Shown one piece after another: positions 25,542 to 49,241 of a stretch of DNA of 64,000 nucleotides. Position 1 is the first letter of the stretch. Each line of letters opens with the position of its first letter. The DNA lies in the NCBI GenBank assembly GCA_045641565.1, contig JAZUHE010000067.1, positions 1,883 to 65,882 of the forward strand, read 5' to 3'. Under the pieces are notes generated by a model that worked only from the letters and a program-made list of their open reading frames with translations, was not told the origin of the DNA and searched no databases. This DNA is from Acutalibacteraceae bacterium (GTDB lineage: Bacteria > Bacillota > Clostridia > Oscillospirales > Acutalibacteraceae). The position numbers and the translations under genes were made by a program.

Positions 25542-25801
25542 CGCATTTTAGGGCAAAATACAGGCAAAATCGCATAAAATGAGGTAAAACGGGCTTTGAG
25601 ATGGCCATCATGGCTGTCCAGGAGCCCATTTTTTCGTTTCCGGCACCGAAAACAGCCCGAAAATGCTGGTGTACTTTTTACGTTTCTTTGCTCTGCAAAG
25701 AAGTCGGCAACCGACTCTGCGAAGGGATTTGAACCTTGTCGAAAATCCAATGCGAATAAGTGATTGTAATCTGTAGAAAGTTTGAAATTTTTATTATAAT
25801 A

Positions 25802-25830
25802 TTGATTTTTCGGTCGAAAAATGCTATACT
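25802..25830 (+). promoter_or_regulatory. Candidate promoter with an embedded palindromic operator, upstream of the XRE gene
   Basis: TTGATT, a 17-nt spacer, then TATACT. The spacer contains the palindrome ATTTTTCG-GT-CGAAAAAT (25805-25822). Confidence 0.5.
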
Positions 25831-25885
25831 AAACAAAAGATGGTAGTTGTATCAAACTCCAAACTGCTTGTAAAGGAGATTTAAA

Positions 25886-26095
25886 ATGGCTGTTAGTTAT
25901 AAGAAATTGTGGCACATTCTTGTGGACAAAAACATGAAGAAAAAGGATCTGGAAGAAGCAGCCGGTATCACCCACTATCAAATGTACAAGCTCGCGAATG
26001 ATAAAGATATCACTACTGATGTGATTGGTGCCATTTGTGCTGCACTCGGGGTTGAGCCAAACGATATCATGGATTTTATTCCGGATAAAAAGTAA
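25886..26095 (+). CDS. XRE-family helix-turn-helix transcriptional regulator
   Basis: 69 aa with a Cro/C1-type HTH pattern (KKKDLEEAAGITHYQMYKLAND...). GGAG RBS. Confidence 0.85.
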   Translation: MAVSYKKLWHILVDKNMKKKDLEEAAGITHYQMYKLANDKDITTDVIGAICAALGVEPNDIMDFIPDKK

Positions 26096-26127
26096 GTAGT
26101 ACAAAATGATCTATTACGGAGGTTTTC

Positions 26128-28179
26128 ATGAGCTACTTAGAATTAGATATTAAACGAAGCTATGTCAGTTATGGTGATCATAATATTGCCAATTCATTTT
26201 TGGTACCTGCACTTAGGCATACGAGAATATATAAACGTAGTGTTGGCTTTTTTTCTTCCGGCGTATTTTCTCCAATTATTGACGGTATTGTTGCTCTATC
26301 GAGAAACAACGGCTATATCCAATTGATAGCGAGTCCTAACCTAAACGAGGAAGACATAAGGGCGATAGACCTTGGATATCAGAAAAGAGAAGATATTATA
26401 TCAGGTGCGGTTGAACGTGATTTTGAAAATGCTCTTGAAGAATTAGATGATGCAAGGTTACAGTTATTGGCATCATTGATAGCAAATGGTACAATGGATA
26501 TAAAAATCGCTGTAACAAATGGAACTGGCATATATCATGACAAGTTGGGGATCATAGAGGATTTTGACGGAAATGTACTTGTGTTTTATGGGTCTCCAAA
26601 TGCCAGCTTAAGCGGGTATCAAAACAATTATGAGAAAATCCGTGTGGTGAAAAGTTGGGTTATCTCGGATAAAGAAAGCATTGAAGATGAAGAGAATGAA
26701 TTTGATGCATTGTGGAATGATACCAATCCCCATGTAAAAGTTTACGATTATTCGATATCAGCGAAATTGAAAATTCTGTCTGTGTTGGAGAATCGGAAAA
26801 GTGCTGCTGATAGAGATGAAAAGAAAGCACCAATTGTCTTAAGGGACTATCAAAATGCTGCGATTAATGCGTGGGTTAAAAATGATTTTCACGGTTTTTA
26901 TGTTATGGCAACTGGTACCGGAAAAACATGGACAGCTATTTTCTCAGCCATTAAACTTATGGATACAATACCGGTGATGACTGTAATCTGCGCACCGTAT
27001 AAGCATCTGGTTAGACAGTGGGCTGAGGATGTGGAAAAGGCTGTTCCGGGCGCAATATTAATTTTGGTATCTTCTGAAAATCAAGGATGGGAACAACAGT
27101 TATCACAAGCAATTGTGCGACAGCGTTTACATAAGGAAACAAAAATTATTGTCATTTCTACGATTAAATCATTTTATCTTGAACGGTTTCAAAATACAAT
27201 CAAAAAATCAAAACAGGAAAAACTATTAATTGTTGATGAAGCTCATCGATTTACAAAACGACCAGAAGCCTTAAGTCAACAATTTCAGTATATGCTCGGA
27301 TTAAGTGCTACCCCTTTTAGTGGCAAAGACACTGCTAAAGGAAATGAGCTTATGGCGTTTTTTGGCGGGCAAGTTTTCAGCCTTCCTATTGAAGAAGCAT
27401 TGAAACGGGGTTTTTTGGTAAAATACAATTACTACCCTATTTTTGTAAATGCAACTGTAGATGAGGAAGAGCGTTTTAGAAAGAAAAGTGCGCAGATTGC
27501 TGGTTGCTTTAGGAATAACGTATGTATTGATCCTGAAAATCTGGCTTTGTACCTACGCGCCCGTCTACGAATCATTTCCATGGCACAGGAAAAACTTGAC
27601 CGCATTGAAGAAATTTTTGCGTATATAAAAGAGAAGGATCACTTTATTGTATACTGCGGAGATGGCAGACTTTATGATGATAATAATGAGGAAATCCGGC
27701 ACATTCAATTTGTAAAACGCAAGTTATCTGGTCTTGGATTTAAAACGAGCCAGTTTACAGCATCAGAGGATATGGCAGAACGTATGGATCTGGTAGATGC
27801 ATTTAACGAAGGCGCAATCGATGCGCTTGCTGCAATAAGGTGCTTGGATGAAGGAATCAACATTCCTTCTATAAATGGAGCCCTGATCCTATCAAGCAAC
27901 GATGATTATAGGGAATTCGTACAACGCAGAGGACGTATTCTGAGAACTTACAAAAATAAAGAATATGCGAATATCTACGATGTAATTGTTTTGCCGTCGT
28001 ATGATACTACAAAAATGGCAGAAATAGAACTTAGGCGATATTACGAATATGCAAGATTGGCATACAATTCTGAGGAACTGCTGACAAAACTTGAAAATAT
28101 TGCTGCGGATTATGGACTGGAGCTTGACGACTTTATTGCCACATTTGATGAAGGTAAGGAGGTAGACCTCGATGACTAA
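26128..28179 (+). CDS. PLD-family nuclease fused to an SF2 (ResIII/DEAH) helicase
   Basis: N-terminal HKD motif YHDKLGIIED...GSPNAS. Helicase motif I is ATGTGKTW, II is VDEAH, III is LSATP and VI is QRRGRILR. 683 aa with no extra C-terminal recognition domain. Confidence 0.85.
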   Translation: MSYLELDIKRSYVSYGDHNIANSFLVPALRHTRIYKRSVGFFSSGVFSPIIDGIVALSRNNGYIQLIASPNLNEEDIRAIDLGYQKREDIISGAVERDFENALEELDDARLQLLASLIANGTMDIKIAVTNGTGIYHDKLGIIEDFDGNVLVFYGSPNASLSGYQNNYEKIRVVKSWVISDKESIEDEENEFDALWNDTNPHVKVYDYSISAKLKILSVLENRKSAADRDEKKAPIVLRDYQNAAINAWVKNDFHGFYVMATGTGKTWTAIFSAIKLMDTIPVMTVICAPYKHLVRQWAEDVEKAVPGAILILVSSENQGWEQQLSQAIVRQRLHKETKIIVISTIKSFYLERFQNTIKKSKQEKLLIVDEAHRFTKRPEALSQQFQYMLGLSATPFSGKDTAKGNELMAFFGGQVFSLPIEEALKRGFLVKYNYYPIFVNATVDEEERFRKKSAQIAGCFRNNVCIDPENLALYLRARLRIISMAQEKLDRIEEIFAYIKEKDHFIVYCGDGRLYDDNNEEIRHIQFVKRKLSGLGFKTSQFTASEDMAERMDLVDAFNEGAIDALAAIRCLDEGINIPSINGALILSSNDDYREFVQRRGRILRTYKNKEYANIYDVIVLPSYDTTKMAEIELRRYYEYARLAYNSEELLTKLENIAADYGLELDDFIATFDEGKEVDLDD

Positions 28180-28345
28180 AGAAGAAGCAGTAATATACAT
28201 GATTTCGAAGGTGGAAGAGGTTGAGCGTGAACGATTGGCGTCACATTTTTCCATTGATGCTACAAAGCAAAAAAAAGAAGCTGTAGATGGAATTCTTAAA
28301 GCATTAAAGGAGGTTCAGCTCGATAATGAAGATCAGCAGGATTGA
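28172..28345 (+). CDS. Small 57-aa ORF (not in the supplied track), function unknown
   Basis: The ATG at 28172 overlaps the helicase stop (GATGACTAA) and is preceded by AAGGAGG 9 nt upstream. The ORF ends at the TGA at 28343-28345, 20 nt inside the next gene. Translation: MTKEEAVIYMISKVEEVERERLASHFSIDATKQKKEAVDGILKALKEVQLDNEDQQD. Confidence 0.5.
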   Translation: MTKEEAVIYMISKVEEVERERLASHFSIDATKQKKEAVDGILKALKEVQLDNEDQQD

Positions 28346-30314
28346 GTTTGAAAACTTTAGAAATTTTCGTGATCACTGCCGCATGGATTTTCCTACAGAT
28401 GGCAGCGTTTCTGTAATCTATGGTCCTAACGGAGTAGGAAAAACTACGCTACACCAGTTGTTCCAGTGGATTTTTTACGGAGATGTACATTTTAATAAAA
28501 CAGCAAGTAATAAAATGTATAATTTAGAGTTTGAACAAGCAGCTAGCTTTCATCAGGTGTTTTCTGTGCTGGGAGTAATTGATTTCGAACACCCTAACGC
28601 AGATGGTGTTATAGAATATTACTCGCTTCGAAGAGAATGGATATATCAAAAAGAGCAGCAGGAATCAAAAATTATTAACAAGAAATTTAGACTGTCTAAA
28701 AAAATCGGAGATGATTGGAAAACAGTATCTGATGATCCGGTTAATATCATAGAACAAATATTACCCAGCGGCTTATCTCAGTATTTCTTTTTTGATGGTG
28801 AAAGCATGATAGCTGACCTGAGCCAGAAAGGTAGAGATTCTGCAAAATCGCTCAGGAAAGCCTTGTACTCCATTTTTGATTTGGATATATATGAACAAGC
28901 ACTCGTACATATAGGGACACAGAGCAGCGGAACCTCTACTGTGTTAGGTAAACTGTATTTTAGTCGTGCAGAAAACAGCACTAACGCTGATGTAATTAAA
29001 GCACGAGGCCTATATCGCCAAGCACTAAAATGGGTAGAGGATCTAGAAGAAAAGATTAGATCTTGCAATGTAGCGATAGAGAGATATAAGCAGGAAGCTC
29101 AGGAGTTATCCGAACAAATTGGAAGTAATCCGTCTCAGGAAACATTGGAAAAGCGACGCAAAAAAGCCAAAGATTCTATAAAAGCTCTTGAAACAGCCAT
29201 TCAGCGTGAGACGAAAGCTTTTGGCGAAACTATTATGGCAAATTATCCATATTTGTTGCTTGCACGCATGGTTGAAGAAGCACAGGTTCGAATCGGCCTC
29301 AAAGTTGAAGAAGAAAAGCTTTTACCAGGTCTGACAAAAGAATTGGTGCTTTCATTACTAAAAGAAAACACTTGTCTGTGCGGAAATCCAATTACAGATG
29401 CCGAGCGTACTTCACTAAATAATCTCCTTAAAATGTTCCCACCGCTATCATATAAGTATATTTATGACCAGTTCAAAAATAATGCTATCCGTTGGAGTAC
29501 AACATATGATAGCGAGGCTCTGCTGAAACACTTAAATGCAATTTTTGAATATAGAGATCAGATTGCAGAGCTTCAGATTGAAATTCATGATATTGATGAA
29601 GAACAGAAACAAGGAGAAAATGTAGATGCGCTGATAGCAAAGCGCGCAAAAGCTGAAGAATCACAGCGGTATTGGCGAAATGAACTAGAAAAAGTAACAA
29701 AGGATCTTGGACTACAAGATCAGATAAAAAAGCAACGTAAGAAGAAGCTTGATGAACTTTTGGCCGCCAATAATGCCAACAAGAGCATCGATGAACAAAT
29801 CGCCATAATGGAAGCAGTCAGAATTTACTTCGACAGCACGTTGAAGTCGTCTGCAAAGCATTATAGTGAAACCCTTCGTTCAACCATTCAGGAATTACTT
29901 GGGAAGATGCTCACCAGCACGAGACAGGTTAGTATGACTGAAAAATTCGAACTGAGTGTAAAAGATAGCTTTGGTGATGAAGCAAAATCAGAAGGACAAT
30001 TTGCAGTTGTTTCATTTGCTTATATTGGAGGAATATTTAAGCTGCTTGGTGATGTGCCTGAATTGAAAGGAAAAGAATTCCCCCTAATTTTGGATGGACC
30101 GTTTTCAAAGTTGGATGTTATTCAGCGGCAGAACGTTATTAACACAATTCCGGCATATGCCCCGCAGGTCATATTGTTTTCGAAAGATGATATTAATAAT
30201 TGCTTTGGAGAAACAGGCATTGAAAATGTATGGACCATTTATAGCAATGCGGAAAGAAATGTATCTCGTGTAGAAAAAGGTTATAATCCGGAGGTGTTCA
30301 TCATAAATGCTTGA
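28326..30314 (+). CDS. SMC/ABC-like AAA ATPase, paralogous to DndD
   Basis: Walker A GPNGVGKTT, FFFDGESM motif, a long coiled-coil middle with CLCGNP, and a D-loop/Walker B region FPLILDGPFSKLD. The layout matches the DndD at 33342. Confidence 0.8.
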   Translation: MKISRIEFENFRNFRDHCRMDFPTDGSVSVIYGPNGVGKTTLHQLFQWIFYGDVHFNKTASNKMYNLEFEQAASFHQVFSVLGVIDFEHPNADGVIEYYSLRREWIYQKEQQESKIINKKFRLSKKIGDDWKTVSDDPVNIIEQILPSGLSQYFFFDGESMIADLSQKGRDSAKSLRKALYSIFDLDIYEQALVHIGTQSSGTSTVLGKLYFSRAENSTNADVIKARGLYRQALKWVEDLEEKIRSCNVAIERYKQEAQELSEQIGSNPSQETLEKRRKKAKDSIKALETAIQRETKAFGETIMANYPYLLLARMVEEAQVRIGLKVEEEKLLPGLTKELVLSLLKENTCLCGNPITDAERTSLNNLLKMFPPLSYKYIYDQFKNNAIRWSTTYDSEALLKHLNAIFEYRDQIAELQIEIHDIDEEQKQGENVDALIAKRAKAEESQRYWRNELEKVTKDLGLQDQIKKQRKKKLDELLAANNANKSIDEQIAIMEAVRIYFDSTLKSSAKHYSETLRSTIQELLGKMLTSTRQVSMTEKFELSVKDSFGDEAKSEGQFAVVSFAYIGGIFKLLGDVPELKGKEFPLILDGPFSKLDVIQRQNVINTIPAYAPQVILFSKDDINNCFGETGIENVWTIYSNAERNVSRVEKGYNPEVFIINA

Positions 30315-30822
30315 GTTTACAACTGATGCCTACTTAAGAGGACCTATTTGGCACGATACACTTGAAAAATTGGTTGGAAGCGTCTTTGAAACACAGTGGG
30401 ATGTATTTGCTCTTTGTATTTCAATTGGAATGATGTACGATAAGCAAATCGAAACAGAAAATATGGTTCCTGATGATTACGAAATGGAACCGCACTCTGT
30501 TGGTAGAAATGTCCTTGGAAAAGCCCAAAATAGAGCATTGTTGGAATTTATGTTTCAAACAGCTATGGTAACAACAAAGCATTTGGATCTTGATGAGGAC
30601 GCACGATTAGAATTAGCTTTTAACGATAATGCAAAACCAGACTTCAATCCAGTGACATTTTTAACAAAATTTGCAAATTATGGTATCTCAAAGCTTTCTG
30701 AGATAATTGCTGATACCGAGGATGTTGAACTTTTGGAATCTATGATGACTTTCCTCAACTCCACCTATGAATCAGGAGCAGAAATTATTGAAGACGAATT
30801 AGAAATTGAAGATTTCGAGTGA
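30307..30822 (+). CDS. 171-aa acidic-tailed protein with a DndE-like helix layout (hypothetical)
   Basis: It overlaps the ATPase gene by 8 nt and has a GGAGGTG RBS. The motif order ALCISIGM...GRNVLG...LLEFMFQ...FANYGISKL parallels DndE's KLAISMSL...NRQTITG...YKSLIE...HLDRGARIL. The C-terminus is Glu/Asp-rich. Confidence 0.65.
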   Translation: MLEFTTDAYLRGPIWHDTLEKLVGSVFETQWDVFALCISIGMMYDKQIETENMVPDDYEMEPHSVGRNVLGKAQNRALLEFMFQTAMVTTKHLDLDEDARLELAFNDNAKPDFNPVTFLTKFANYGISKLSEIIADTEDVELLESMMTFLNSTYESGAEIIEDELEIEDFE

Positions 30823-30842
30823 GTGTTTCAAATAGAGAACTA

Positions 30843-30897
30843 TTGACAAAATGCGACAAGCGTGATATACTTAAGTACATACTTAAGTATATCACGC
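30843..30897 (+). promoter_or_regulatory. Promoter plus 38-nt palindrome (operator and/or terminator) upstream of dndB
   Basis: TTGACA (30843-30848), a 17-nt spacer, then TATACT (30866-30871). Perfect 17-nt inverted arms GCGTGATATACTTAAGT / ACTTAAGTATATCACGC span 30860-30897 and are followed by TTTGCTTTG. Confidence 0.55.
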
Positions 30898-30915
30898 TTT
30901 GCTTTGAGGTGAATT

Positions 30916-31977
30916 ATGAATTTTACATACCGTTTCCCAGCTGTTCGTGGCGTTCAAGCTGGAAGAGAATATTATATTTCAATGGTTCCATTAAAGTTGT
31001 TATCTCGCTTGTTTCCTGCCGAAGAAGAAATTGTGCTTCCTGAATATCGGGCACAGCGTAGAATAAACGAAGCCCGTATTCCTGAAATTAAAAAATATAT
31101 TTTAGATAACCGGGATACTTATGTCTTTTCTGCCCTTTCTGCATCTATAGATGGTGAATTTAGGTTTGCTTCAATTGACGACGTAGATGTTGGCATCTTG
31201 GAAGTTGATATGGAATCTGTTTTTCTAATCAACGATGGGCAGCATCGTAAGGCTGCGATTTTAGCAGCGATGGAAGAAGATGCATCATTAGAAAAAGAAA
31301 CTATCTCAATTGTGTTTTTTGCAGATGAAGGACTCGCGCGCAGCCAACAGATGTTTACGGATTTAAATAAACATGCTGTAAAAACGTCCAATTCTCTTTC
31401 CACATTATACGATGCACGTGATGAGATTGCAGTTGCAACCAAAAATGTGATTGATGCTATTCCGTTCTTTAAGAAATACACCGATAAAGAACGAGATATC
31501 CTTGGAAAAAACTCGTCCAATCTGTTTACTTTGAACATGATCTATAAGGCAAATCAGAAAATACTTCACGGCGAAAAATGCAGCGAAAATGACGAGCGTT
31601 TTTTGATTGATTTCTGGAGGTTGATTTCCGAAAACATTATTGAGTGGCAAGAAGTTCTGAACAAAACCCTCACCAAAAAAGCTCTTAGAGAAAATTATAT
31701 CGTGGCGTTAGCAATAACAATTAGCGCCTTTGGAAGGCTGGGAAGACATTTTTATGAGCACCGTGATTCAATGGACTCATACCTTACTAAGCTTAGATCT
31801 ATCGACTGGTTGCGAACAAACGAAGCGTGGGTAGGTCGAACAATCCGACAGAACGGGAAAGTCTTAAATAGTGAAGAAGCGGTTTTATTAACGTGCTCAC
31901 TGATAAAGCAAAAACTTGGTATTTCTCTAACAAAAGAGGAACAGCAAAAAGAAAAAATGATGTTGGAGAAGAAATGA
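30916..31977 (+). CDS. dndB: DNA phosphorothioation protein DndB (DGQHR domain)
   Basis: INDGQHRKAAILAA (DGQHR motif). 353 aa, directly upstream of dndC. Confidence 0.85.
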   Translation: MNFTYRFPAVRGVQAGREYYISMVPLKLLSRLFPAEEEIVLPEYRAQRRINEARIPEIKKYILDNRDTYVFSALSASIDGEFRFASIDDVDVGILEVDMESVFLINDGQHRKAAILAAMEEDASLEKETISIVFFADEGLARSQQMFTDLNKHAVKTSNSLSTLYDARDEIAVATKNVIDAIPFFKKYTDKERDILGKNSSNLFTLNMIYKANQKILHGEKCSENDERFLIDFWRLISENIIEWQEVLNKTLTKKALRENYIVALAITISAFGRLGRHFYEHRDSMDSYLTKLRSIDWLRTNEAWVGRTIRQNGKVLNSEEAVLLTCSLIKQKLGISLTKEEQQKEKMMLEKK

Positions 31978-31978
31978 T

Positions 31979-33352
31979 ATGAAATATACGGGAGAATTTG
32001 CTGCATACGAGGACATCATTCAAGAAATGAAACTCGTATATCAAAATGATAAACGTCCATGGATGATTGGATTCAGCGGTGGTAAAGATTCGACGCTATT
32101 ATGTTGTCTTGTCATGGAAATGCTCGAACGACTTCCGGCAGAAAAGCGCAATAAAACAGTTTATATTGTTTCATCAGACACCATGGTTGAAAATCCAATT
32201 GTGCGAGATTATATGCATAGAATGTCAACTATGATTAATGAAGCTGGAGCGCGCCTAAATGTAAAAGCGGACATCATTTATCCCAAGGTCGAGGATACGT
32301 TCTGGTGCAAAACGATAGGACTTGGCTATCCTACACCGGAAGCTCCGGGATTTCGCTGGTGTACAGAACGTCTGAAGATTCATCCGATGAACGCGTATAC
32401 ACTCAATACGATCAAAAATAACGGTGAGGTTGTATTGCTTTTGGGTGTGCGCAAGGCTGAAAGCACATATAGGGCAAATAATATTCGCTCAAGAGAAATT
32501 GAGGGCAAGCTCCTTGTTCCACATAATGATATAGAGAATGCCTATGTATATAATCCACTCACAGAAATTCCAAATGAAGAAGTATGGAAGTTCTTGTTGA
32601 AGGGAGATGCTAAAACGCCCTGGGGCTCTGATAATAAATATCTTTTTTCACTCTATCAAGGGGAAAATCTCGGTGAAGAAGCCAGTGTTATCGGAGAAAT
32701 CGATGAGAACAAGATTCCGGTAACCGGGAATTCGCGTTTCGGTTGCTGGATTTGCACAATGGTAAAGGAAGACAAATCTCTGAAAACATTCATTGATCGC
32801 GGAGAAGAGTGGCTCATTCCTTTGCGTGATTACCGAAATTGGATGCTTTCCATGCGCACAACTCCTGGAGCACGCGAGTATAAACGCAGAAATGGCTCCA
32901 TGTATCGCAAAGCTGATGGATCATTAGGTGAAGGACCATTTACTATGGAGACTAGAAAAGAAATGCTTCGCCGCCTTCTTCAGCTTGAAGTGGATACAGG
33001 TTTATCACTTATCACAATTGAAGAGCTAAAGCAAATCGATATAATGTGGGATAATGAAGGAGACCTAACGCGAAGAAGCTTGGTGGAAATATACAACGAT
33101 GTAACTGGCAAAACACTTCCTTGGGATCAGTATAAGACGCCGATTTTTCCTGCAGATGTTATCGATGAAATCCAACAGCAATGCATAGAAAATAACGTTG
33201 AATTTGAACTGATTTCTAAGTTGATAGTTGAAATTGAAGCTAACAAATACTATACAAAAGGATCTATAATGACAAAGGCATTTGATCGAATAATCAATCA
33301 AGGATGGCTTCACTTTGACAGTATCGAGAAGGGTTTAAAAAATGATAATTGA
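31979..33352 (+). CDS. dndC: DNA phosphorothioation protein DndC (PAPS-reductase-like ATP pyrophosphatase)
   Basis: The PP-loop is GFSGGKDST and the Fe-S Cys motif is RFGCWICT. 457 aa. Confidence 0.92.
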   Translation: MKYTGEFAAYEDIIQEMKLVYQNDKRPWMIGFSGGKDSTLLCCLVMEMLERLPAEKRNKTVYIVSSDTMVENPIVRDYMHRMSTMINEAGARLNVKADIIYPKVEDTFWCKTIGLGYPTPEAPGFRWCTERLKIHPMNAYTLNTIKNNGEVVLLLGVRKAESTYRANNIRSREIEGKLLVPHNDIENAYVYNPLTEIPNEEVWKFLLKGDAKTPWGSDNKYLFSLYQGENLGEEASVIGEIDENKIPVTGNSRFGCWICTMVKEDKSLKTFIDRGEEWLIPLRDYRNWMLSMRTTPGAREYKRRNGSMYRKADGSLGEGPFTMETRKEMLRRLLQLEVDTGLSLITIEELKQIDIMWDNEGDLTRRSLVEIYNDVTGKTLPWDQYKTPIFPADVIDEIQQQCIENNVEFELISKLIVEIEANKYYTKGSIMTKAFDRIINQGWLHFDSIEKGLKNDN

Positions 33353-35429: not shown

Positions 35430-35430
35430 T

Positions 35431-35808
35431 ATGGTTTTTAAGATTAGAACTTCAAAAAAAACAATGACTATTTTTGAAGAGATGGCTGCCAGCACAAATT
35501 ATGCACCGTTCATTCTTTCTAAGCTTGCCATTTCGATGTCTCTCAAACTTGGAGGTCCATTACAAGAGAACGATTTTCATACGGATACATATGGACTGGA
35601 ATTAAACAGACAAACAATTACTGGTGAATGGGACGAGCTATACAAAAGCCTGATAGAAATGCACGAAGGGCAACACATATCTGATGATGATTATTTTCAG
35701 AAATACCTGAAAGCTCATCTGGATCGTGGAGCTCGGATTCTTTATAGTGAGTTTAAGTATAATAACGATTTCCTAATTGGTCTTTTGAGCCATAAAACCG
35801 GTATATAA
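35431..35808 (+). CDS. dndE: DNA phosphorothioation protein DndE
   Basis: About 125 aa, starting 1 nt after the dndD stop, with a GAGGTG RBS. Size and position are typical of DndE. The ORF track begins at an upstream TTG (35419). Confidence 0.75.
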   Translation: MVFKIRTSKKTMTIFEEMAASTNYAPFILSKLAISMSLKLGGPLQENDFHTDTYGLELNRQTITGEWDELYKSLIEMHEGQHISDDDYFQKYLKAHLDRGARILYSEFKYNNDFLIGLLSHKTGI

Positions 35809-35822
35809 AAGAGGTGGATTGT

Positions 35823-37793: not shown

Positions 37794-37811
37794 TACTTAT
37801 AGGAGATTAAT

Positions 37812-39794: not shown

Positions 39795-39816
39795 GACAGT
39801 AAACGGAGGATTCATA

Positions 39817-41760: not shown

Positions 41761-41804
41761 TCAGTTCATTCTTTTAACACTAATATGTTACGTTTCGGTG
41801 CTGC

Positions 41805-42702
41805 ATGAAAAAAGATAATTTCACTTTTGATGGAAAAGAAAGATGTGAAACCGTCATGGTTGAGAATGAAAAAATAGAATTATACGAAGATCAGCCGATC
41901 CGGACTGCGTGGAACGAAGTCGAAGAAGAATGGTATTTTTCTGTCGTTGATACTATCCGTGTTTTGACCGACAGCAAAGATCCATTGGCATACTGGAGAA
42001 AGCTGAAACAGCGGTTAATTAGCGAAGGCAATGAAACCGTGACAAATTGTCACGGTTTGAAAATGACTGCTGCCGACGGGAAAAAACGTCTTACCGACGT
42101 TGCCACCACGGAGCAGCTTCTTCGCATCATCCAGTCCATCCCATCAAAAAAAGCAGAGCCGTTCAAAATGTGGCTGGCACAGGTCGGACGCGAGCGAATT
42201 GAAGAAACCATCGATCCTGAGCTGACGATTGAGCGAGCGCTGGAGATATATCTTAAAAAAGGTTATTCGCGGGAGTGGATCAATCAACGTTTACAGGCTA
42301 TCCAAGTACGCAAGGAACTAACCGACGCAGAACCGTGGCGTCAAGGAAGGCGTGGAATACGCAATCCTGACCGACGAGATCACCAAAGCGTGGTCAGGTA
42401 TGTCCACGCGGCAGTATAAAAACCTCAAAGGGCTGAAAAAGGAAAACCTGCGGGACAATATGTCTACGCTGGAGCTCGTGCTCAACATGCTAGCCGAGGC
42501 AACCACGACAGAACTTTCCAAAACACATGAGCCACAGGGCCTTGCGGAGAATCAGAGTATTGCCCGTCAGGGTGGGCAGATCGCCGGAAATGCACGGAAA
42601 GAAATCGAAGAAAACACTGGGAGACCTATAATTACATCTAAAAACGCCACAGAACTCAACGCCGTGGTGACAAAACTGATCGAGGAAACCAGCAAGGAAT
42701 AA
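41805..42702 (+). pseudogene. Bro-N / DinD-like (DNA-damage-inducible protein D-like) gene with a +1 frameshift
   Basis: The N-terminal part (41805-42419 ORF) and the C-terminal part (42352-42702 ORF) are consecutive pieces of one protein. The second frame is open from 42322 (PTQNRGVKEGVEYAILTDE...), which places the shift at about 42322-42340. Confidence 0.7.
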
Positions 42703-42795
42703 TGCACTTGTTACTTTTCTCTTAACAATGCCCTTTTCGGGTAGCTATTTCCCGCCTTCTCTGGTATGTTTTGTGCTGTCAAAGGAGGTGGCACA

Positions 42796-43086
42796 ATGGA
42801 GAGCACTATTCAGGAATTGTATTACGGCAATATTCCGCTTTCGGATCGGGACTTCAAGAAAAATAGTGAGTACGCGCACATTTTGCAGCTTGTTTCTCGA
42901 CACGAAGAAAGCCTCATGAGTACCCTGACCGAAGCACAGAAAGAGATTTTCGAGAAGTTCAAAGACGGGACTGCGGAAATCGAAGGCATGACGGAAGTGG
43001 CGGCCTTTACCATCGGCTTCAAGCTGGGCCTGCGACTGACCGCAGAGGCATTTATCAGCGGCGAGCAAAACCTGATCGACGAATGA
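42796..43086 (+). CDS. Small hypothetical protein (about 96 aa) of a type common on Firmicutes mobile elements
   Basis: The ATG at 42796 lies 7 nt after AAGGAGGTG, and a terminator-like hairpin follows. Function unknown. Confidence 0.6.
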   Translation: MESTIQELYYGNIPLSDRDFKKNSEYAHILQLVSRHEESLMSTLTEAQKEIFEKFKDGTAEIEGMTEVAAFTIGFKLGLRLTAEAFISGEQNLIDE

Positions 43087-43183
43087 TCCCAACGCGTCGC
43101 ATCCGAGTGGGTGCGATTGCGTTTTCAAAAGATCGGAGTCATATGATAAGTATTAAAAATGATAATCAACTGCGCATCTGCCC

Positions 43184-43316
43184 CAGTCTAGCCCAATTTC
43201 GCGTAACTTTTCCTATATAATTCTTTACGCGCGACTTTATCAGAAATAGAAGCAGTAATAGCCAGTACCCCAGTATTAAGTCAAGGAACTTGCTAAGTTC
43301 CTTGTAATGGCTTTCT
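43184..43316 (+). repeat. ~125-nt hairpin-bearing repeat, copy A
   Basis: It aligns with copies B and C: ...TAACTTTTCCTATAT...ACGCGCGACTTTATCAGAAA.AGA...CAGTAATA...AGTAC. Hairpin AAGGAACTT-GCT-AAGTTCCTT at 43283-43303. Confidence 0.8.
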
Positions 43317-43344
43317 TTCAATACCCTCCGTCGCTGATGGCTGA

Positions 43345-43466
43345 ATCAGTTTGAGGCTGTTTCGCTGTAACTTTTCTATACTTCTTTTCATACGCGATTT
43401 TATCAGAAAAAGAATCAGGAATAGTAAGTACTTCAGTAAAGGAACTTTGTAAGTTCCTTTAGAATG
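43345..43466 (+). repeat. ~125-nt hairpin-bearing repeat, copy B
   Basis: Same unit, about 30 nt after copy A. Hairpin AAAGGAACTT-TGT-AAGTTCCTTT at 43438-43460. Confidence 0.8.
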
Positions 43467-43508
43467 ATATTTTATGCAGTGCGGAAAATATAGTCGTATA
43501 ACCGCAGC

Positions 43509-43730
43509 ATGCATATTAGTGGGACATTCAGCAAAAATCAGGACATTGAAGCCACAAAACAGGATATTGCCAGTGGAAAACAGGACATTGGAACAACACT
43601 TTCCCGTCACCAGCAAAAGCAATACGAAAAAATGGTCGCTTCATTTGGTAAGACCACTGTTTTCGGAAGAAGCGATATGGTTGCTGCTTTAGGTATCACA
43701 CCATCTCCGGCATCTGCATATTGGAAATAA
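43509..43730 (+). pseudogene. Possible remnant of a regulator/Fic-associated gene (QDI-repeat region plus a truncated wHTH-like tail)
   Basis: 73-aa ORF with KQDI repeats, ending ...FGRSDMVAALGITPSPASAYWK where homologues (from memory) continue. It is weakly supported as a functional gene. Confidence 0.3.
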
Positions 43731-43742
43731 TATAAATACGAG

Positions 43743-44609
43743 GTGCACAATATGATTAATAAAACCTCAATACGTTTTTTCGAAAATATCCCGGTACGCG
43801 CTGTTTGGGACGATGAAAGCTCCAAATGGTGGTTTTGTGCTATGGATATTGCCGAAGCACTGACAAAATCAAAAAATCCAAGGTCGTATTGGAATGCAAT
43901 CAAAAGGCGAAAAAATGAGTTGTCGACAATTTGTCGACAACTGAAATTAAAAGCGAAAGACGGCAAGTTTTACAATACCGATGTGGTAGATGAAAACAGC
44001 CTGAATACCGTTCTTGCACTTATTCCAAGCAAAAAATCCGATGTGTTCCAAAAGTGGATGAAAAACATGGAAACGTCGCTTGACGAGAAGAGTAAGCAAA
44101 AAGCCTATGAACTTTTTGAAAGCGGATTTATCGACAACATCGAAGTCGGCACGGCTAAAGGCTTGCAACAAATCCACGGCTATATTTTCGGCGGTCTTTA
44201 CGATTTTGCGGGACAGATCCGAACACTGAATATTGCAAAGGGCGGTTTCGCTTTTGCTCCAGCAATATACTTGGATGGAGCCCTTGCACATATTGAGGCG
44301 ATGCCGGAAAATACGCTGAATGAAATCGTGAGCAAATATGTGGAAATGAACGTGGCACATCCGTTCATGGAGGGTAACGGTCGCAGTACCCGCATCTGGC
44401 TTGACCTAATGCTGAAAAAGAACTTGAAAAAATGCGTGGATTGGAGCCAGATTGATAAGACGGAATACCTTGACGCCATGCGGGAGAGCGTGGATGATTC
44501 GCACCGGATATTTGAACTGTTGCAAAGCGCCCTGACTGATGATATCTATAACCGCGAGATCATTATGAAGGGCATAGACTATTCGTATTATTACGAGACA
44601 GAAGAATGA
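43743..44609 (+). CDS. Bro-N domain plus Fic (AMPylase/DOC) domain protein
   Basis: N-terminal [31 protein letters not shown] (Bro-N-like). The Fic motif is [23 protein letters not shown]. Confidence 0.8.
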
Positions 44610-44632
44610 GAGGACAGCAAAGGAGGCAGACT

Positions 44633-44986
44633 ATGCAGTTTATTTGTTATCCCAAATGCACGACCTGCCAGAAGGCCAAGAAGTGGTTGGAGGAAAATGG
44701 TGTTGCGTTTGACGAGCGACACATCAAGGAAAACAATCCCACAGCCGAAGAGCTGCTGGCGTGGCACAAGAAAAGTGGATTGCCGCTGAAGAAGTTTTTT
44801 AACACCAGCGGTCTGCAGTATAAGGCACTGCAACTCAAGGACAAGCTGCCTGCCATGAGCGAGGGCGAACAGTTTGCGTTGCTCGCTTCGGACGGTATGC
44901 TGGTCAAGCGTCCGCTCTTGATCGGTGACGACTTCGTGATAGTGGGCTTCAAAGAGGCAGACTGGGTATCTGTCCTCGGAAAGTGA
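44633..44986 (+). CDS. ArsC/Spx-family protein (arsenate reductase-like)
   Basis: YPKCTTCQKAKKWLEENGV...LVKRPLL pattern. The ATG at 44633 follows AAGGAGG. Confidence 0.75.
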   Translation: MQFICYPKCTTCQKAKKWLEENGVAFDERHIKENNPTAEELLAWHKKSGLPLKKFFNTSGLQYKALQLKDKLPAMSEGEQFALLASDGMLVKRPLLIGDDFVIVGFKEADWVSVLGK

Positions 44987-44995
44987 GGGTATAAC

Positions 44996-45481
44996 ATGAC
45001 CAACAAACTTGTAGCCTATTTCTCTGCCAGCGGAGTAACGGCAAAGGTCGCCGGAAAACTGGCAAGTGCACTAGAAACAGATATCTACGAGATCAAGCCG
45101 GAAGTAAAATACACCAAAGCAGACCTGAACTGGATGAATAAAAAGTCCCGCAGCAGCATTGAAATGAACGACAAAAGCTTCCGTCCCGCCATAATCTCCG
45201 GTGATATGGATATTTCCGGGTATGACACAATTTGTCTTGGATTCCCAATCTGGTGGTATGTTGCACCGACAATTATCAACACATTCCTTGAAGCCTACGA
45301 TTTTTCCGGTAAGAAAATCCTGTTGTTTGCCACGGCTGGCAGTAGTGGATTCGGTGATACGGCAGCAGAACTCAAGCCCTCTGCACCAAACGCGGATATT
45401 ATCGAGACCAATGTATTGACAGGAATTATTACAGAGCCAAAAGTGAAAAAGTTGATCGAACTCGTTCAAAAGTCACTGTAA
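44996..45481 (+). CDS. Flavodoxin-family protein
   Basis: KLVAYFSASGVTAKVAGKLA FMN-binding loop pattern. 161 aa. Confidence 0.7.
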   Translation: MTNKLVAYFSASGVTAKVAGKLASALETDIYEIKPEVKYTKADLNWMNKKSRSSIEMNDKSFRPAIISGDMDISGYDTICLGFPIWWYVAPTIINTFLEAYDFSGKKILLFATAGSSGFGDTAAELKPSAPNADIIETNVLTGIITEPKVKKLIELVQKSL

Positions 45482-45505
45482 ACATATTGACCACTGAGCA
45501 ACTGA

Positions 45506-45633
45506 CTCAGTCTGAGGCAATTTTGCATAACTTTTTCTATATATTTTTCACGCGCGACTTTATCAGAAAAAGAGTCAGTAATACTCAGTACTTCAGTAAA
45601 GGAACTTTGTAAGTTCCTTTGGAATGGCTTTTT
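45506..45633 (+). repeat. ~125-nt hairpin-bearing repeat, copy C
   Basis: Same unit as A and B, about 25 nt after the flavodoxin stop. Hairpin AAAGGAACTT-TGT-AAGTTCCTTT at 45598-45620. Confidence 0.8.
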
Positions 45634-45660
45634 ACTTATGGACGATATTTGACGTAGGAA

Positions 45661-45693
45661 ACAGCGCAGGCACCAATAGCCTGCGCTGTTTTT
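45661..45693 (+). terminator. Rho-independent terminator
   Basis: Perfect 10-bp stem ACAGCGCAGG / CCTGCGCTGT followed by TTTT. Confidence 0.8.
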
Positions 45694-45840
45694 GGATAAG
45701 ATAACGATTTTTCAACGCTAATATCCGATACCATCGTATTTTAGCGTTGATGTAATAGAAATTTTAACATAAAGGTGGTGATGCGTATTGAAAGCAGCAT
45801 GACTCTTTGGAAGCAAAACAAAAGAAGGAGGTAAAACAAC

Positions 45841-47322
45841 ATGGTTTCCAAAGAACAGTTTTTAGTAATCCGACGATGTCATCAAAAAGGCATGACGGCA
45901 AACGAGATCGCACAAAAGGTCGGCGTGTCGGCACCGAGCGTTCGAAAATGGTGGAATGTCGAAGAAAAGACGTTCGATGAACTGATCCAAGGCAATATGG
46001 CCTATCTGGACAATTACCGAGAGTTCATTCTGAACATTCTCCGACTATGCCCACAAACACGGCAGACAAATATCCTGTATCGCCTGCAAGAAGAGTTCCC
46101 GGATTTTCATTGTCATAAGCAGACATTCTATCGGTATATGAAGATGCTGCGAGAACAGACGGGCTTTGAACAGTTTAATCACCGGAACACTTCGCCCCGT
46201 GAGGAAACACCGCCCGGCTATGAAGCACAGGTGGATTTCGGCCAGTTCAAAATGATGGATATGTATGGTAAAAATGTCCGCGTATATTTCTTCTGCATGG
46301 TACTGGCATATAGCCGAATGCACTACCTGTATTTTAGCCGAGAGCCGTTCACCACCCGCGAAGCCATCAAAGCACACGAATACGCTTTCTTGTATTACGG
46401 AGGCAGACCGCAGACCATTCTGTACGACCAAGATAAAGTGTTTGTTGTCAGCGAGAACTTCGGTAGTATTGTGCTTGTTCCAGCCTTTGAAGAATTCGCA
46501 CGAAACACTGGTTTTAGTGTTCGCCTATGCAGGCCGCATGATCCGCAGAGCAAAGGCAAAGTGGAGAGCTTCGTGAGATACGTCAAAGAGAGTTTTCTTA
46601 CCGGACGAATCTATACCGGCATTGACAACCTCAATAGCGCAGCACTGCGATGGCTGGATAATGAGGGCAATGGCACCACCAATCTCCGAACTCGCAAACC
46701 ACCAAGAGAACTATTCCGTGAAGAAATACGGCATCTGGAAAAGTTCTATGCTTCACAGTCGGAGCCGTCGATGGTGCGGAGTGTTTCGGATAAGTTCATG
46801 GTGAAAGTGGACTGGAGCAATTACGAATTGCCACATAACGTTGTGCGACCATTCGATCAGGTACGTATTGAGAATGAGTTCGGTATTCTGCTTTTCTACA
46901 AAGCCGGCAGCAACGAGCTGATTTACAAATGCAAGAAGCGCGAGACAGCCGGTGTGTCACCAACTGGAAAAGAAACAGAAAAGCCGGATTTTGTGGCCAG
47001 CAACTCCATTCGATATCGCTTTGCAGAGTATGACGTAATCGACGAATTTGTGGAGAGGCTATCGGAAGCGGAGCCAAGATACAAAAACGTGCAGTTCAAC
47101 CGGATCATTACACTGGCGAATTTGTACTCCACGGAGCAGTTAGCGGAAGCGATCGAATATTGCGTCAAAGTGAATCGCTGCAACGTTTCTGAAATCACAG
47201 CTTTTCTCATTTTTCGTCATGGTGACGATGTGGCAAAGAAACGACTTTCAAATAACGCTTATTACTATAATCGGAAACGAGCTGAAGAAATAAGGAGGGA
47301 GCAAGATGGCAAATATCTCTGA
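45841..47322 (+). CDS. istA: IS21-family transposase IstA
   Basis: N-terminal HTH and a DDE/rve core (QVDFGQF...YFFCMVLAYSRM...DQDKV...). 493 aa, with an AAGGAGG RBS. Confidence 0.9.
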   Translation: MVSKEQFLVIRRCHQKGMTANEIAQKVGVSAPSVRKWWNVEEKTFDELIQGNMAYLDNYREFILNILRLCPQTRQTNILYRLQEEFPDFHCHKQTFYRYMKMLREQTGFEQFNHRNTSPREETPPGYEAQVDFGQFKMMDMYGKNVRVYFFCMVLAYSRMHYLYFSREPFTTREAIKAHEYAFLYYGGRPQTILYDQDKVFVVSENFGSIVLVPAFEEFARNTGFSVRLCRPHDPQSKGKVESFVRYVKESFLTGRIYTGIDNLNSAALRWLDNEGNGTTNLRTRKPPRELFREEIRHLEKFYASQSEPSMVRSVSDKFMVKVDWSNYELPHNVVRPFDQVRIENEFGILLFYKAGSNELIYKCKKRETAGVSPTGKETEKPDFVASNSIRYRFAEYDVIDEFVERLSEAEPRYKNVQFNRIITLANLYSTEQLAEAIEYCVKVNRCNVSEITAFLIFRHGDDVAKKRLSNNAYYYNRKRAEEIRREQDGKYL

Positions 47323-47986
47323 GATCCAGCAGATTGCGCGGAAGCTGGGACTGACCAATATCGCAAGCGGCGCCGTCAACTTGAATGACGAGACACTATC
47401 CAATACTGACTATCTGCTAAAAGTATTATCCGGTGAGCTGGAAGCTGTCGAGAATGCCTCACTGATGAAGCGCCGGCAAGCAAGTGGACTGCCACACCGA
47501 ACATTTTCTCTGGATAAGCTGAACAAAGGCATTGCCTGGCAGGTGGAGCAGCTCGAAAAGCTCGATTGGATCGACAATACCGAAGACCTTGTTGTCATCG
47601 GCAAATGCGATACCGGCAAAACCTCACTGGCTGTACACCTGGCAGAGAAAGCGTTAAAAAACGGAGAACGGGTATTTTACGCAGATATCGATACCTTTCT
47701 TGAAATTATGCGCAACAAAGAACATATCGACAAGTTCCATCGCAAATTCCGGTATATGTTAAGCTGCGGGCTGATCATCATTGATGAAATCATGTACGTC
47801 ACCATATCACCGGCAGATCTGCCGCTGTTCTACAGGGCAGTAAACTTCCTCAAGGAAGAGCGAAGCATTGTATTCATAACCAACCGTGAATTGTCAGAGT
47901 GGACACAGGCAGCGGAAGACCATCACCTGATGCAAACGCTGACAGAAAAGATCATGAGCACAAGTCAGCTCATTCGAATGACTTAA
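47306..47986 (+). CDS. istB: IS21 helper ATPase IstB
   Basis: Walker A GKCDTGKTSL and Walker B IIIDEI. It overlaps istA by 17 nt. Confidence 0.9.
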   Translation: MANISEIQQIARKLGLTNIASGAVNLNDETLSNTDYLLKVLSGELEAVENASLMKRRQASGLPHRTFSLDKLNKGIAWQVEQLEKLDWIDNTEDLVVIGKCDTGKTSLAVHLAEKALKNGERVFYADIDTFLEIMRNKEHIDKFHRKFRYMLSCGLIIIDEIMYVTISPADLPLFYRAVNFLKEERSIVFITNRELSEWTQAAEDHHLMQTLTEKIMSTSQLIRMT

Positions 47987-48134
47987 CAAAATGGGACACA
48001 CCGTGTCCGTTTGCCATATAACTTAAACTCGAAAAATACTGGATTTATATCCGGATTATATAGATTTCGTTTTCCCGAGTTGCAAAAAAATTCTCAGGAA
48101 TTTTCTAAAATTCGAAAGAAACTGAGAATAATGA

Positions 48135-48761
48135 TACCCCATAGGGGGCATCGCAATCTCCAGCGGATTTTCGCGTGCAACGGGCGTGGGGTATCGCGCA
48201 AATTTCCGGGAAATCAAGTGGGGCTGCGCAGCAAGAGTGTCGCAGGGACGCGAAGCCTGCAGCCTGAGTCATCACGTCCGCGAGGACGTACTCGAAAAGA
48301 CATACACGGCAGCGATCCAGCAGATCACCGAGAGCGCCGATGAGGTCACCGCAGCAGTACGCGAAGGTGCGATGCTGACTCTGGAGCCGGAGAACAGAGA
48401 ACGCCTCGAAACGGTGGAGCAGGCCATCATCGAGACGCAGGAACAGGCCCTCACGCTTCACAAAAAGAAGGTCGCACACCAGATCACGGAAGCCGAGTAC
48501 ACGGATGCCATTCAGGCATGCGGCCAGAGAATGAAGGAACTCGAAGCCGAGCAGGCCGAGCTCCAGACCATCGCCACCCGGTACAGTGAGGTCAAAGCAT
48601 GGCTGGACACCTTCGAGGAAAACGTCCGCAGCGGCGACATCCTGGATGCCAACGACGCCTTGGTCATGAAGGCGCTGGTCGATGAGATCATCGTAGGCGA
48701 CACCGGCATCGAGATACACTGCAAATGCGGAGTCACCATCGAGCAGGAATACGTAAGATAA
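48135..48761 (+). pseudogene. 3' remnant of a large serine recombinase gene
   Basis: Only the C-terminal part is present: the end of the zinc-ribbon region (W.C....C), a coiled-coil, and the IIVGDTGIEIHCKCG tail. The frame opens right after a stop at 48132. There is no N-terminal resolvase domain. The region is visibly GC-rich. Confidence 0.7.
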
Positions 48762-48765
48762 ACAG

Positions 48766-48811
48766 AGCCCTCGGCCACCGGCAGCAGCGCCGGACGGTCG
48801 AGGGCTTTTTT
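48766..48811 (+). terminator. Rho-independent terminator
   Basis: AGCCCTCG...CGAGGGCT stem followed by a T6 run. Confidence 0.75.
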
Positions 48812-48880
48812 GCGTCAAAGGGTAGAAAAATTCATAAAACCGTGCTATAATATTCCAAAAATGAGAACGGAGGCCATGAC

Positions 48881-49069
48881 ATGGAACACAGTGCATTTGA
48901 CAACGATGCATGGGCTTCGCTCACGCCAGAAGAAAAGAAGCGGGCTTTGTACGAAAGACAAAAGAAAACGCTGGCAGACTTTCTGGAACGGAACGCGATC
49001 AGCAAGGCACAATACGATAAGAGCCTGCACGACCTGACCGAAAAGATGGGCTACGGCGAGACAAAATAA
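48881..49069 (+). CDS. Small 62-aa protein typical of Firmicutes integrative elements (function unknown)
   Basis: The pattern LTPEEKKRALYERQKKTLADFLERNAISKAQYDKSLHDLTEKMGY is remembered as frequently adjacent to serine recombinases. Confidence 0.55.
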   Translation: MEHSAFDNDAWASLTPEEKKRALYERQKKTLADFLERNAISKAQYDKSLHDLTEKMGYGETK

Positions 49070-49241
49070 ATCGGTACCATTTTGCGTTTTTTACCTTCAA
49101 TCGGTACCTTTTAGGTAGTCTTTTACAATGATATCCGCTCCTTACGGAACGGGTGATATATCATTGTCACTATTTCGACTTATCGTTATAATTAGTTAAA
49201 CTGTAATCTGTTTCGATACGCTGTGCTCGAGCCATAAAATA

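Follow-up and report, generated by a model that had tools for sequence, protein, structure and literature searches.

Integrative elements that rely on a large serine recombinase include phages with phiC31/Bxb1-type integration, Tn4451/Tn5397 and SCCmec with Ccr at the 3' end of rlmH, and each of the known members uses one protein-coding or intergenic site. Here, we analyzed a stretch of 64,000 nucleotides from an Acutalibacteraceae bacterium (assembly GCA_045641565.1, contig JAZUHE010000067.1; the whole stretch is called the window below) and found by comparison with related islands that an island of 23.6 kb occupies positions 25497-49127, its left limit lying directly after the CCA of a tRNA-Gly gene. 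We consider it likely that a large serine recombinase mobilizes a whole family of such integrative islands and that the one in the window is a decayed representative. The family is large and apparently undescribed, and its exact borders in the window can now be given. Islands that are seeded at tRNA genes and grow by tandem accretion are already known from the tycheposons, of which 910 of 937 elements use tyrosine recombinases and a minority carries a large serine recombinase; parts of the tRNA remain as repeats after their insertion, and every integrase clade is specific for a single tRNA (Hackl et al., bioRxiv 10.1101/2020.12.28.424599).

Our locus resembles the large-serine-recombinase elements in several respects. 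In an intact relative (locus L141) the recombinase, which consists of Resolvase, Recombinase and zinc-ribbon domains, lies beside one end; an imperfect inverted repeat surrounds a short non-palindromic core; the target gene stays intact; and there is neither a long direct repeat nor a target duplication. In contrast to these elements, the family has as its target the CCA end of tRNA genes of at least 21 isoacceptors and brings replacement tRNA terminators along, and the copy in the window is without the catalytic two-thirds of its recombinase. With the tycheposons and other tRNA-seeded islands it has in common that cargo grows beside tRNA genes via integrase-carrying elements, that new arrivals push older ones outward in tandem and that degenerate integrases remain. 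Unlike tycheposons, the island has no duplicated tRNA fragment, the ends of the family are conserved across many tRNAs, and the hosts are anaerobic gut and rumen Clostridia. Nor does it share with tRNA-targeting tyrosine-integrase islands a tRNA 3' end repeated at the distal border or a tyrosine integrase match. A full-text literature search, which is not proof of novelty, returned no serine-recombinase family landing directly behind the CCA of many tRNAs, and neither a conserved terminator-bearing arm nor an arm of IS21 plus recombinase fragment was described for such a family.

For the analysis, genes were called by Pfam and PADLOC and tRNAs by ARAGORN (the tRNA-Gly also by Rfam) in an assembly that is 96.6% complete; all coordinates are collected in Table 1. 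When the island DNA was searched across the genus, genome G333 matched positions 25563-25734, and G344 proved to carry the same left stretch together with the helix-turn-helix (HTH) gene and the PDC-S41 gene. The tRNA beside this conserved left end (LE) differs from case to case: it is Gly(ccc) in the window, Ser(gga) in G333, Leu(gag) in G344 and an unidentified end reading ...CACCA in G003. The congeners G004 and G005 have tRNA-Gly(ccc) followed by ordinary terminators, with neither the LE block nor an island, and their DNA downstream of the bare tRNA shows no homology to the right flank in the window. Since homology starts at the first base after the CCA of each tRNA, positions 25497-25734, hairpin included, belong to the element. 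The first-pass annotation had correctly placed a tRNA-Gly upstream of the island; it had set the left junction at 25765, which is 268 nt too far right, and had taken 25507-25541 for the tRNA's own terminator and 25541-25764 for host-like DNA. Both stretches are actually the conserved left end (to 25734), and the insertion is not separate from the tRNA gene, as had been proposed, but abuts its last base and carries its own terminator hairpins.

In an alignment of 36 related loci, the two LE hairpins, each followed by a T run, show compensatory changes. At pair 11-36, for example, 20 sequences have C-G and 18 have G-C, and in hairpin 2 both sides have changed in seven pairs. Across the same loci, the right-end motif recurs in the distal part of the left end (25671-25734), where most relatives also have an inverted partner of it, and the terminal sequence of this part, GGATTTGAAC, is the reverse complement of a tRNA T-loop. 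This motif copy with its T-loop-like close may be a fossil att junction or a binding site. As a separate candidate, a decayed minus-strand tRNA at 25715-25745 was considered and rejected: the T-loop-like GGATTTGAAC is conserved, yet no tRNA folds. Neither the 3' part of the tRNA nor the junction occurs a second time in the window or the genome, no duplicated tRNA 3' end or terminator was found at the right border, and the major open reading frames (ORFs) scanned gave no match to a phage-integrase family.

At the right side, homology between the window and G333 extends through the recombinase fragment and its terminator to 48815. Two metagenome contigs, L188 and L189, which were found via short homologs of the recombinase fragment, are 87-91% identical at the nucleotide level across istAB and this fragment. 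When the end motif was aligned separately, its match in L189 broke off exactly at window position 49127, and the element in L188 closes with the same motif. Beyond this right end (RE), the terminator hairpins are unrelated and the host genes differ, one contig having a pyrimidine operon and the other a Big_2 gene. The RE motif also closes elements in L141, G333 and G386, and its terminal copy is the only good match of its kind on the plus strand of the island. Every right end terminates in (A/G)CA and every tRNA target in CCA. Because the homology of the closer relatives is limited at 49127, the 63-aa ORF lies inside the island, and the repeat resembling repetitive extragenic palindromes (REP) lies outside. 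The right junction at 49211, as annotated before, is 84 nt too far right. Thus, the relatives show homology limits (25497 and 49127) that disagree with both earlier junctions, an outcome which the first-pass annotation itself had named as counting against its borders. The hairpin just outside the element may be the original sequence downstream of the tRNA; an unrelated terminator hairpin also stands behind the RE of L141, G333, L188 and L189.

To scan for the family, we used the first 22 nt of the left end (AAGAAACNTCTTTTGTCTACCA) as query against one genome per GTDB species. This motif occurs in at least 119 stretches, and among the matches listed nearly all hosts are Oscillospiraceae, Acutalibacteraceae, Ruminococcaceae or unclassified metagenome-assembled genomes of Clostridia from rumen and gut. 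A tRNA predicted by ARAGORN ends exactly 3 nt upstream in 47 of the 82 motif copies analyzed, and 21 isoacceptors are represented. Many of the remaining copies are preceded by a 3' end that resembles a tRNA or by the right-end motif that closes another element, and tandem elements, in which an RE is joined to the next LE, were found in G003, G386, L091 and L106. The long LE block (~200-240 nt) is common to 36 further loci. A compact picture is provided by L141, which looks intact: behind tRNA-Arg(acg) follow the LE, a WYL regulator, a type II methyltransferase, a 243-aa ORF and a large serine recombinase of 553 aa (Resolvase+Recombinase+Zn_ribbon), then the same terminator that lies at 48770-48815 in the window, the end motif in two copies and an unrelated terminator. 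This enzyme is the sole recombinase of the element and lies ~130 nt from the right end. The other characterized relatives that keep the long LE block (G333, G344, G003, L141) all carry defense genes. In the genome under study there is one exact copy of the left-end motif only. Its contig C187 holds at ~9430 (minus strand) a tRNA-Met and, 3 nt on, a degenerate LE hairpin with compensatory changes, followed by a flavoprotein gene; this hairpin may be the solo scar of a lost element.

When the two ends of the island are joined, they read TCTTTTA-CA-TAAAAGA, an inverted repeat around a non-palindromic CA, which looks like the attP core of a serine recombinase. This mirror symmetry, read from the sequences, covers 7/7 positions in the window and in G386 and 6/7 in G333, L141 and G003; no other repeat joining the two ends of the island was found. 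The attP core formed by RE and LE would be ...GGTAGTCTTTTA-CA-TAAAAGAAAC..., its LE side also being given as TAAAAGAAACG. In the proposed mechanism, the family would insert immediately behind the 3'-terminal CCA of tRNA genes, the recombinase joining attP to the tRNA end. Since the tRNA targets all end in CCA and the right ends all in (A/G)CA, we infer a crossover at the CA of CCA, which probably serves as the 2-bp crossover sequence; such an exchange would create no long direct repeat and leave the tRNA intact. In the window, the terminal CA of tRNA-Gly (25495-25496) is the proposed crossover dinucleotide of attL. The incoming LE would supply the tRNA with two new intrinsic terminators, and the old tRNA terminator would move beyond the RE. 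The predicted empty-site junction (25496|49128) is CCCTGCTCCA joined to ATGATATCCGC, and the predicted circle junction is GTCTTTTACA joined to TAAAAGAAACG. For the crossover, the recombinase may rely on the CA that is universal to tRNA CCA ends, and its half-site may be the common T-arm/acceptor shape.

The first-pass annotation was right in stating that the only recombinase of the island is a 3' fragment, which corresponds to aa ~342-553 of a large serine recombinase of ~550 aa. This fragment matched no Pfam family at default thresholds, a sub-threshold zinc-ribbon match being the only signal, and searches of phage and plasmid collections gave no matches. It matches the final ~200 residues of full-length Resolvase+Recombinase+Zn_ribbon proteins from other genomes, which in tblastn place it at aa 342/344-553. 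Comparison with the full-length recombinase of G312 gave a BLASTP E value of 1e-55, and the 3' part of a full-length gene in G374 shares 85% aa and 89% nt identity with the fragment. A complete recombinase with all three domains is missing from the window and present in L141. As only aa ~342-553 are left, the window copy is a decayed member of the family. In the rest of the genome no close intact recombinase was found; what it has is an N-terminal piece in decay (51% identity) and a distantly related paralog. Thus, the island is probably immobile, and the earlier conclusion to that effect is reasonable for an assembly of this completeness. The N-terminal piece (C118 2031-2318) is 51% identical to aa 41-136 of the L141 enzyme, lies in AT-rich DNA and is followed by stops.

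Directly upstream of the fragment lies an IS21-type unit of ~2.4 kb, the limits of which are known only from homology, the left one varying between 45707 and 45771 with the relative compared. Like members of the IS21 family, it has overlapping genes for IstA (493 aa, HTH + rve) and IstB (226 aa, IstB_IS21 ATPase). It differs in that no terminal inverted repeats or target duplication were found for it (no convincing inverted repeat links 45.5-45.85 kb with 47.99-48.3 kb) and that its genome has no other copy. Several species moreover retain its junction with the recombinase fragment (34-91% identity), which is unusual for a free-living IS. This istB-fragment junction is the same in the window, G333 and G344, the DNA at 48146-48240 being especially conserved; the same istAB-fragment arrangement was found in L188, L189 and G373 (fragment 34% identical), and G386 has a reduced form with a C-terminal piece of IstB and a fragment at 45% identity. 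In all cases the fragments start at aa ~342-370, are without the first CxxC of the zinc ribbon and are open. The stand-alone fragments include those on G373:C56, G386:C8 and G399:C10, and most of the whole set lie directly after istB. A protein collection contained 38 clusters of homologs of 126-289 aa, one of which (P0036) also carries an IstB_IS21 domain. The ratio of nonsynonymous to synonymous substitution rates between the fragments of the window and G333 is 0.28, which we do not take as proof of function; with 89% nucleotide identity to part of an intact gene, gene conversion could keep the fragment open. Taken together, these data indicate that the istAB pair replaced the 5' two-thirds of the recombinase gene in this lineage and that the junction is an old trait shared by the whole island lineage and not an accident private to this genome. 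The arm of istA, istB and recombinase C-terminus may even be a selected module rather than debris, and a stand-alone zinc-ribbon/coiled-coil protein could, for example, lock the island or block rival elements at tRNA sites. This proposal, taken jointly with targeting of the universal CA, is tentative, and we regard it as rather doubtful that both hold.

The first-pass annotation had placed the island at 25765-49211, apart from the tRNA and bounded by the 10-nt direct repeat TGTAATCTGT as target-site duplication or att core, a reading to which we now give almost no credence. It is true that this 10-mer is present exactly twice in the 64-kb window (25765-25774 and 49202-49211, both on the plus strand) and that the composition shifts within a few hundred bases of both copies. 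GC drops from ~0.45-0.50 to 0.35-0.39 across 25.5-25.75 kb. The tetranucleotide distance to the genome has z values below 0 left of 25 kb, climbs to +2 to +3 at 26-38 kb, remains elevated as far as ~49 kb and then returns to host-like values; the change on the right is that from the GC-rich recombinase fragment (0.55) to ordinary DNA. An atypical stretch of ~25.5-49 kb was therefore correctly noticed, but both signals resolve at the kb scale, cannot place a border and do not single out 25765 or 49211 as switch points. The caveat that one shared 10-mer could arise by chance was well founded. When the non-coding zones 25541-25885 (345 nt) and 49067-49491 (425 nt) were compared with resampled sequences and with segment pairs of the same genome, a shared direct k-mer of at least 10 nt appeared in 20% of the Markov resamples and 21% of the random segment pairs. 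At a chance expectation of ~20%, the repeat is statistically meaningless. Its right copy, moreover, is internal to a dispersed host repeat, of which BLAST of the assembly found at least 14 other copies, aligned in register. Their consensus at the position of the 10-mer is AACTGTTATCTG, and the other copies reach ~14 nt further left; the left 10-mer has no further similarity to this repeat family. Positions 25497-25734 and 48816-49127 would count as host DNA if the 10-mers were the borders, yet they are conserved parts of the element in other species behind other tRNAs, and the homology to close relatives stops at 49127 and not at 49211. The 10-mer is thus a chance match and no border, target-site duplication or att repeat.

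It can also be asked whether there is a mobile unit at all. The ~240-nt block could be a host module linked to tRNA genes and made up of terminators and either a structured RNA or a protein-binding site. It would mark a hotspot of recombination, at which defense genes gather by homologous exchange between strains, with the recombinase fragment and IS21 as unrelated debris. The two covarying hairpins of the left block are what a functional RNA or terminator would show, the downstream genes differ across loci, and cargo modules are clearly reshuffled among relatives. We nevertheless regard a host module as unlikely: the block is single-copy per genome and stands behind a different tRNA in each congener, while G004 and G005 have nothing of the kind behind the same tRNA; a mirroring right-end motif always accompanies the block; right ends joined to left ends occur in tandem; and the compact relative L141 amounts to just these ends plus one intact serine recombinase. 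This relative, which has the same ends without istAB, also bears on the idea that the whole island is a large IS21-derived transposon moved by IstA and IstB, with the mirrored ends as terminal inverted repeats, a preference for sites behind tRNA genes and the recombinase fragment as a passenger. In G003 the ends are present and both genes are missing; the island is not flanked by a target-site duplication; the limits of the istAB module (45707/45771 to ~48134) lie well inside it; and insertion at exactly one base behind CCA without duplication favors site-specific recombination over DDE transposition. IstA and IstB are intact and conserved (76-78% aa identity) in several islands, where they always form the right arm, the end motif is repeated at both ends like the transposase-binding sites of IS21 ends, and islands with a truncated recombinase do occur behind different tRNAs, but on balance an IS21 transposon of this size appears quite improbable.

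Several points weigh against our preferred reading of the locus as a decayed serine-recombinase island. The case for integration by the serine recombinase is built on association and on the symmetry of the ends. Islands with a truncated recombinase sit behind three different tRNAs in one genus, which would require either help in trans or a right arm swapped by recombination. Across the motif loci, the first downstream ORFs are heterogeneous (150 ORFs: GNAT, HTH, WYL and many housekeeping-like genes), so that many copies may be solo scars and the family is not uniformly a carrier of defense genes. No conspecific empty site or excised circle was obtained: exact-protein look-ups of the flanking genes returned nothing or one 2-kb contig ending within the tRNA, and a 26-nt pattern of the left flank had zero matches in metagenome contigs. 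Congeners (~75% identity) lose synteny downstream of the DivIVA-like gene and the tRNA-Gly and offer no empty site at the nucleotide level, and the PbeA query retrieved no close relatives from the species genomes. The flank to the right of 49127 (hairpin, REP, 513-aa ORF) is poorly conserved. Finally, the tRNA-Gly region is inverted relative to G004, and the present right flank may therefore not be the original half-site of the target. On G004:C72 the DivIVA-like gene and tRNA-Gly are followed by a homolog of the window gene 11821-13758; this order indicates that one of the two genomes has the segment from uvrC to tRNA-Gly (window ~13.8-25.5 kb) in inverted orientation, one of the breakpoints being the tRNA end.

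Table 1. Features of the island and of its immediate flanks (positions in the window)
Feature	Position	Strand	Evidence and remarks
tRNA-Gly(ccc), integration target	25423-25496	+	ARAGORN, Rfam
Conserved left end (LE)	25497-25734	+	homology with G333, G344 and G003 starts right after CCA and ends at 25734
LE half-palindrome TAAAAGA, adjoining the core	CA-TAAAAGA at 25495-25503	+	
LE terminator hairpin 1	25500-25540	+	
LE terminator hairpin 2	25591-25627	+	T run to 25634
LE motif GTACTTTTTACGTTTCTTTGC, RE-like	25671-25691	+	
LE closing motif GGGATTTGAAC	25724-25734	+	
Left copy of TGTAATCTGT	25765-25774	+	non-conserved spacer inside element, 31 nt beyond LE block; read as chance match
Cro/C1-type HTH gene, 69 aa, first cargo gene	25886-26095	+	Pfam HTH_26, E 8e-19; homolog at same place in G344
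PbeA-like PLD-helicase	26128-28179	+	PADLOC PbeA, E 1.5e-197
PbeC-like SMC/AAA ATPase	28326-30314	+	PADLOC PbeC, E 4e-70
171-aa ORF	30307-30822	+	no family match
dndB, dndC, dndD, dndE (DNA phosphorothioation)	30916-35808	+	Pfam, PADLOC; G333 homologs 69-88% aa identical
GmrSD/DUF262-type nuclease gene after dndE	35814-37793	+	Pfam GmrSD_N, E 1.4e-20; G333 homolog 70% identical
PDC-S41 / Schlafen-group-3 (DUF2075) helicase gene	37812-39794	+	GC 0.49; PADLOC PDC-S41, E 8e-279
AbiU/AIPR abortive-infection gene	39817-41760	+	PADLOC AbiU, E 7e-139; Pfam AIPR
Bro-N	41805-42419	+	Pfam; mid-GC block (41805-45481)
DUF6809	42766-43086	+	Pfam; mid-GC block
Bro-N/Fic	43743-44609	+	Pfam; mid-GC block
ArsC/Spx-like	44606-44986	+	Pfam; mid-GC block
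Flavodoxin	44996-45481	+	Pfam; mid-GC block
Direct repeat of ~110-140 nt, three copies	43197-43303, 43360-43474, 45520-45634	+	bracket the Fic-ArsC-flavodoxin genes
IS21-type module	45771-48134	+	istA 45841-47322, istB 47306-47986, 150 nt downstream; Pfam rve/HTH, IstB_IS21
Large serine recombinase, C-terminal fragment	48135-48761	+	equivalent of aa ~342-553; open from 48135
Terminator hairpin after recombinase fragment	48770-48815	+	conserved in G333, L141, L188, L189
63-aa ORF inside element	48878-49069	+	no family match; homologous stretch after full-length recombinase in G374
Right end (RE)	49070-49127	+	degenerate motif copy 49070-49095, terminal copy ATCGGTACCTTTTAGGTAGTCTTTTACA 49100-49127
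RE half, mirrors left end	TCTTTTA 49119-49125, CA 49126-49127	+	
Hairpin just outside element	49128-49166	+	90% identical inverted copy on own contig C197
Dispersed host repeat member (REP-like or like a miniature inverted-repeat transposable element)	49199-49343	+	holds right 10-mer copy (49202-49211), 3 nt from its start

The cargo bears out the earlier picture of a foreign, composite and defense-laden island adjoining tRNA-Gly, and the gene content had been recognized correctly (defense genes, Bro/Fic/ArsC/flavodoxin genes, IS21 istAB and a 3' fragment of a serine recombinase). Its left part is shared with G333: the PbeA- and PbeC-like genes and the 171-aa ORF stand there in the same order (72-83% aa identity), and the stretch from PbeA through GmrSD is ~71% identical at the nucleotide level over 11.4 kb. 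In G333, as in G344, istA, istB and the recombinase fragment follow the cargo. Synonymous sites of the cargo genes are saturated between the window and G333, which points to old lineages and not to recent transfers. A 42-nt perfect palindrome (30858-30899) lies between the 171-aa ORF and dndB, at the same place as in G333.

In 2019, Xiong and co-workers reportedly described Dnd phosphorothioation with Pbe-type restriction partners. As in such systems, dndBCDE and the PbeA- and PbeC-like genes form one co-directional cluster in the island. What sets the island apart is the lack of dndA, an extra GmrSD-like gene after dndE and the fact that PbeB and PbeD were not recognized by the models used. 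No dndA was found within the island; a cysteine desulfurase elsewhere in the genome was not searched for. The 171-aa ORF and the GmrSD-like gene gave no match to the PbeB or PbeD models, with PbeA and PbeC matching strongly.

Further right, homologs of PDC-S41 adjoin istA in G344 (86%), G373 (52%) and L188, and homologs of the Fic, ArsC and flavodoxin genes (~65-75% nt identity) are scattered in many congeners. The ~110-140-nt repeat, which includes a perfect short hairpin, is found after ArsC-like or flavodoxin genes and before istA in several genomes; further copies were seen in G333 (upstream of istA), on G345:C61 and at L188 4719-5018 (with an ArsC gene). The relatives carry different sets of genes between the same two ends: Pbe-Dnd-GmrSD only in G333; an HTH gene, pieces of a type I restriction-modification system, Hachiman and PDC-S41 in G344; a type IIG restriction-modification enzyme in G003; and T5orf172, a PDC-S41-like gene, ArsC and DUF4143 in L188. 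The cargo in the window looks like the union of these modules, produced by module exchange between conserved ends and not by serial insertion of elements. Of the earlier proposal of successive insertions, the composite nature of the island stands; a pile-up of independent elements does not, as the relatives show modules reshuffled between two conserved ends. Similarly, a division into three compositional blocks describes the island in part and is too simple, PDC-S41 (GC 0.49) being flanked by AT-rich neighbors.

Outside the island, the dispersed host repeat measures ~100-145 nt, is sometimes arranged in tandem and also occurs in congeners; it has a conserved start (tttatagtcggggtAACTGTTATCTG) and an internal hairpin (GGCTCCCTCGTGAGGGAGC). 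Rfam contains no family for this repeat or for the left block of the island. Copies lie in the window (49199-49343 and 11426-11499) and on the own contigs C79, C90 (two), C182, C162, C64, C84, C150, C188, C5, C57, C116 and C17. The 513-aa ORF (49492-51033) has no Pfam match even at E = 10 and was found in one of 24 congeners (G005, 67% nt identity); a 40% identical fragment of it lies 3.5 kb downstream of the left-end motif in L092. On G005:C118 (locus L008), a second copy of the tRNA-Gly 3' end (GATTCCCGTACCCTGCTCC) is present ~200 nt downstream of the intact tRNA-Gly(ccc). A tRNA 3' end duplicated in this way classically marks a tyrosine-integrase element, here at the same tRNA in a congener.

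For annotation, our results mean that the borders of the island shift to exact bases and that a hairpin resembling a tRNA terminator is mobile DNA. The 22-nt motif flags more than 100 tRNA-adjacent sites in uncultured gut and rumen Clostridia and is a possible handle to harvest their cargo, new defense systems included. The conserved arm of IS21 and recombinase fragment raises the question of whether integrase fragments persist as regulators of island stability. If the universal-CA reading is true, one type of element could land behind almost any tRNA gene and bring its own replacement terminators. A recombinase that recognizes tRNA ends generally would explain how one family seeds islands behind many tRNAs, and it would be a candidate integrase with ready landing sites in any bacterium.

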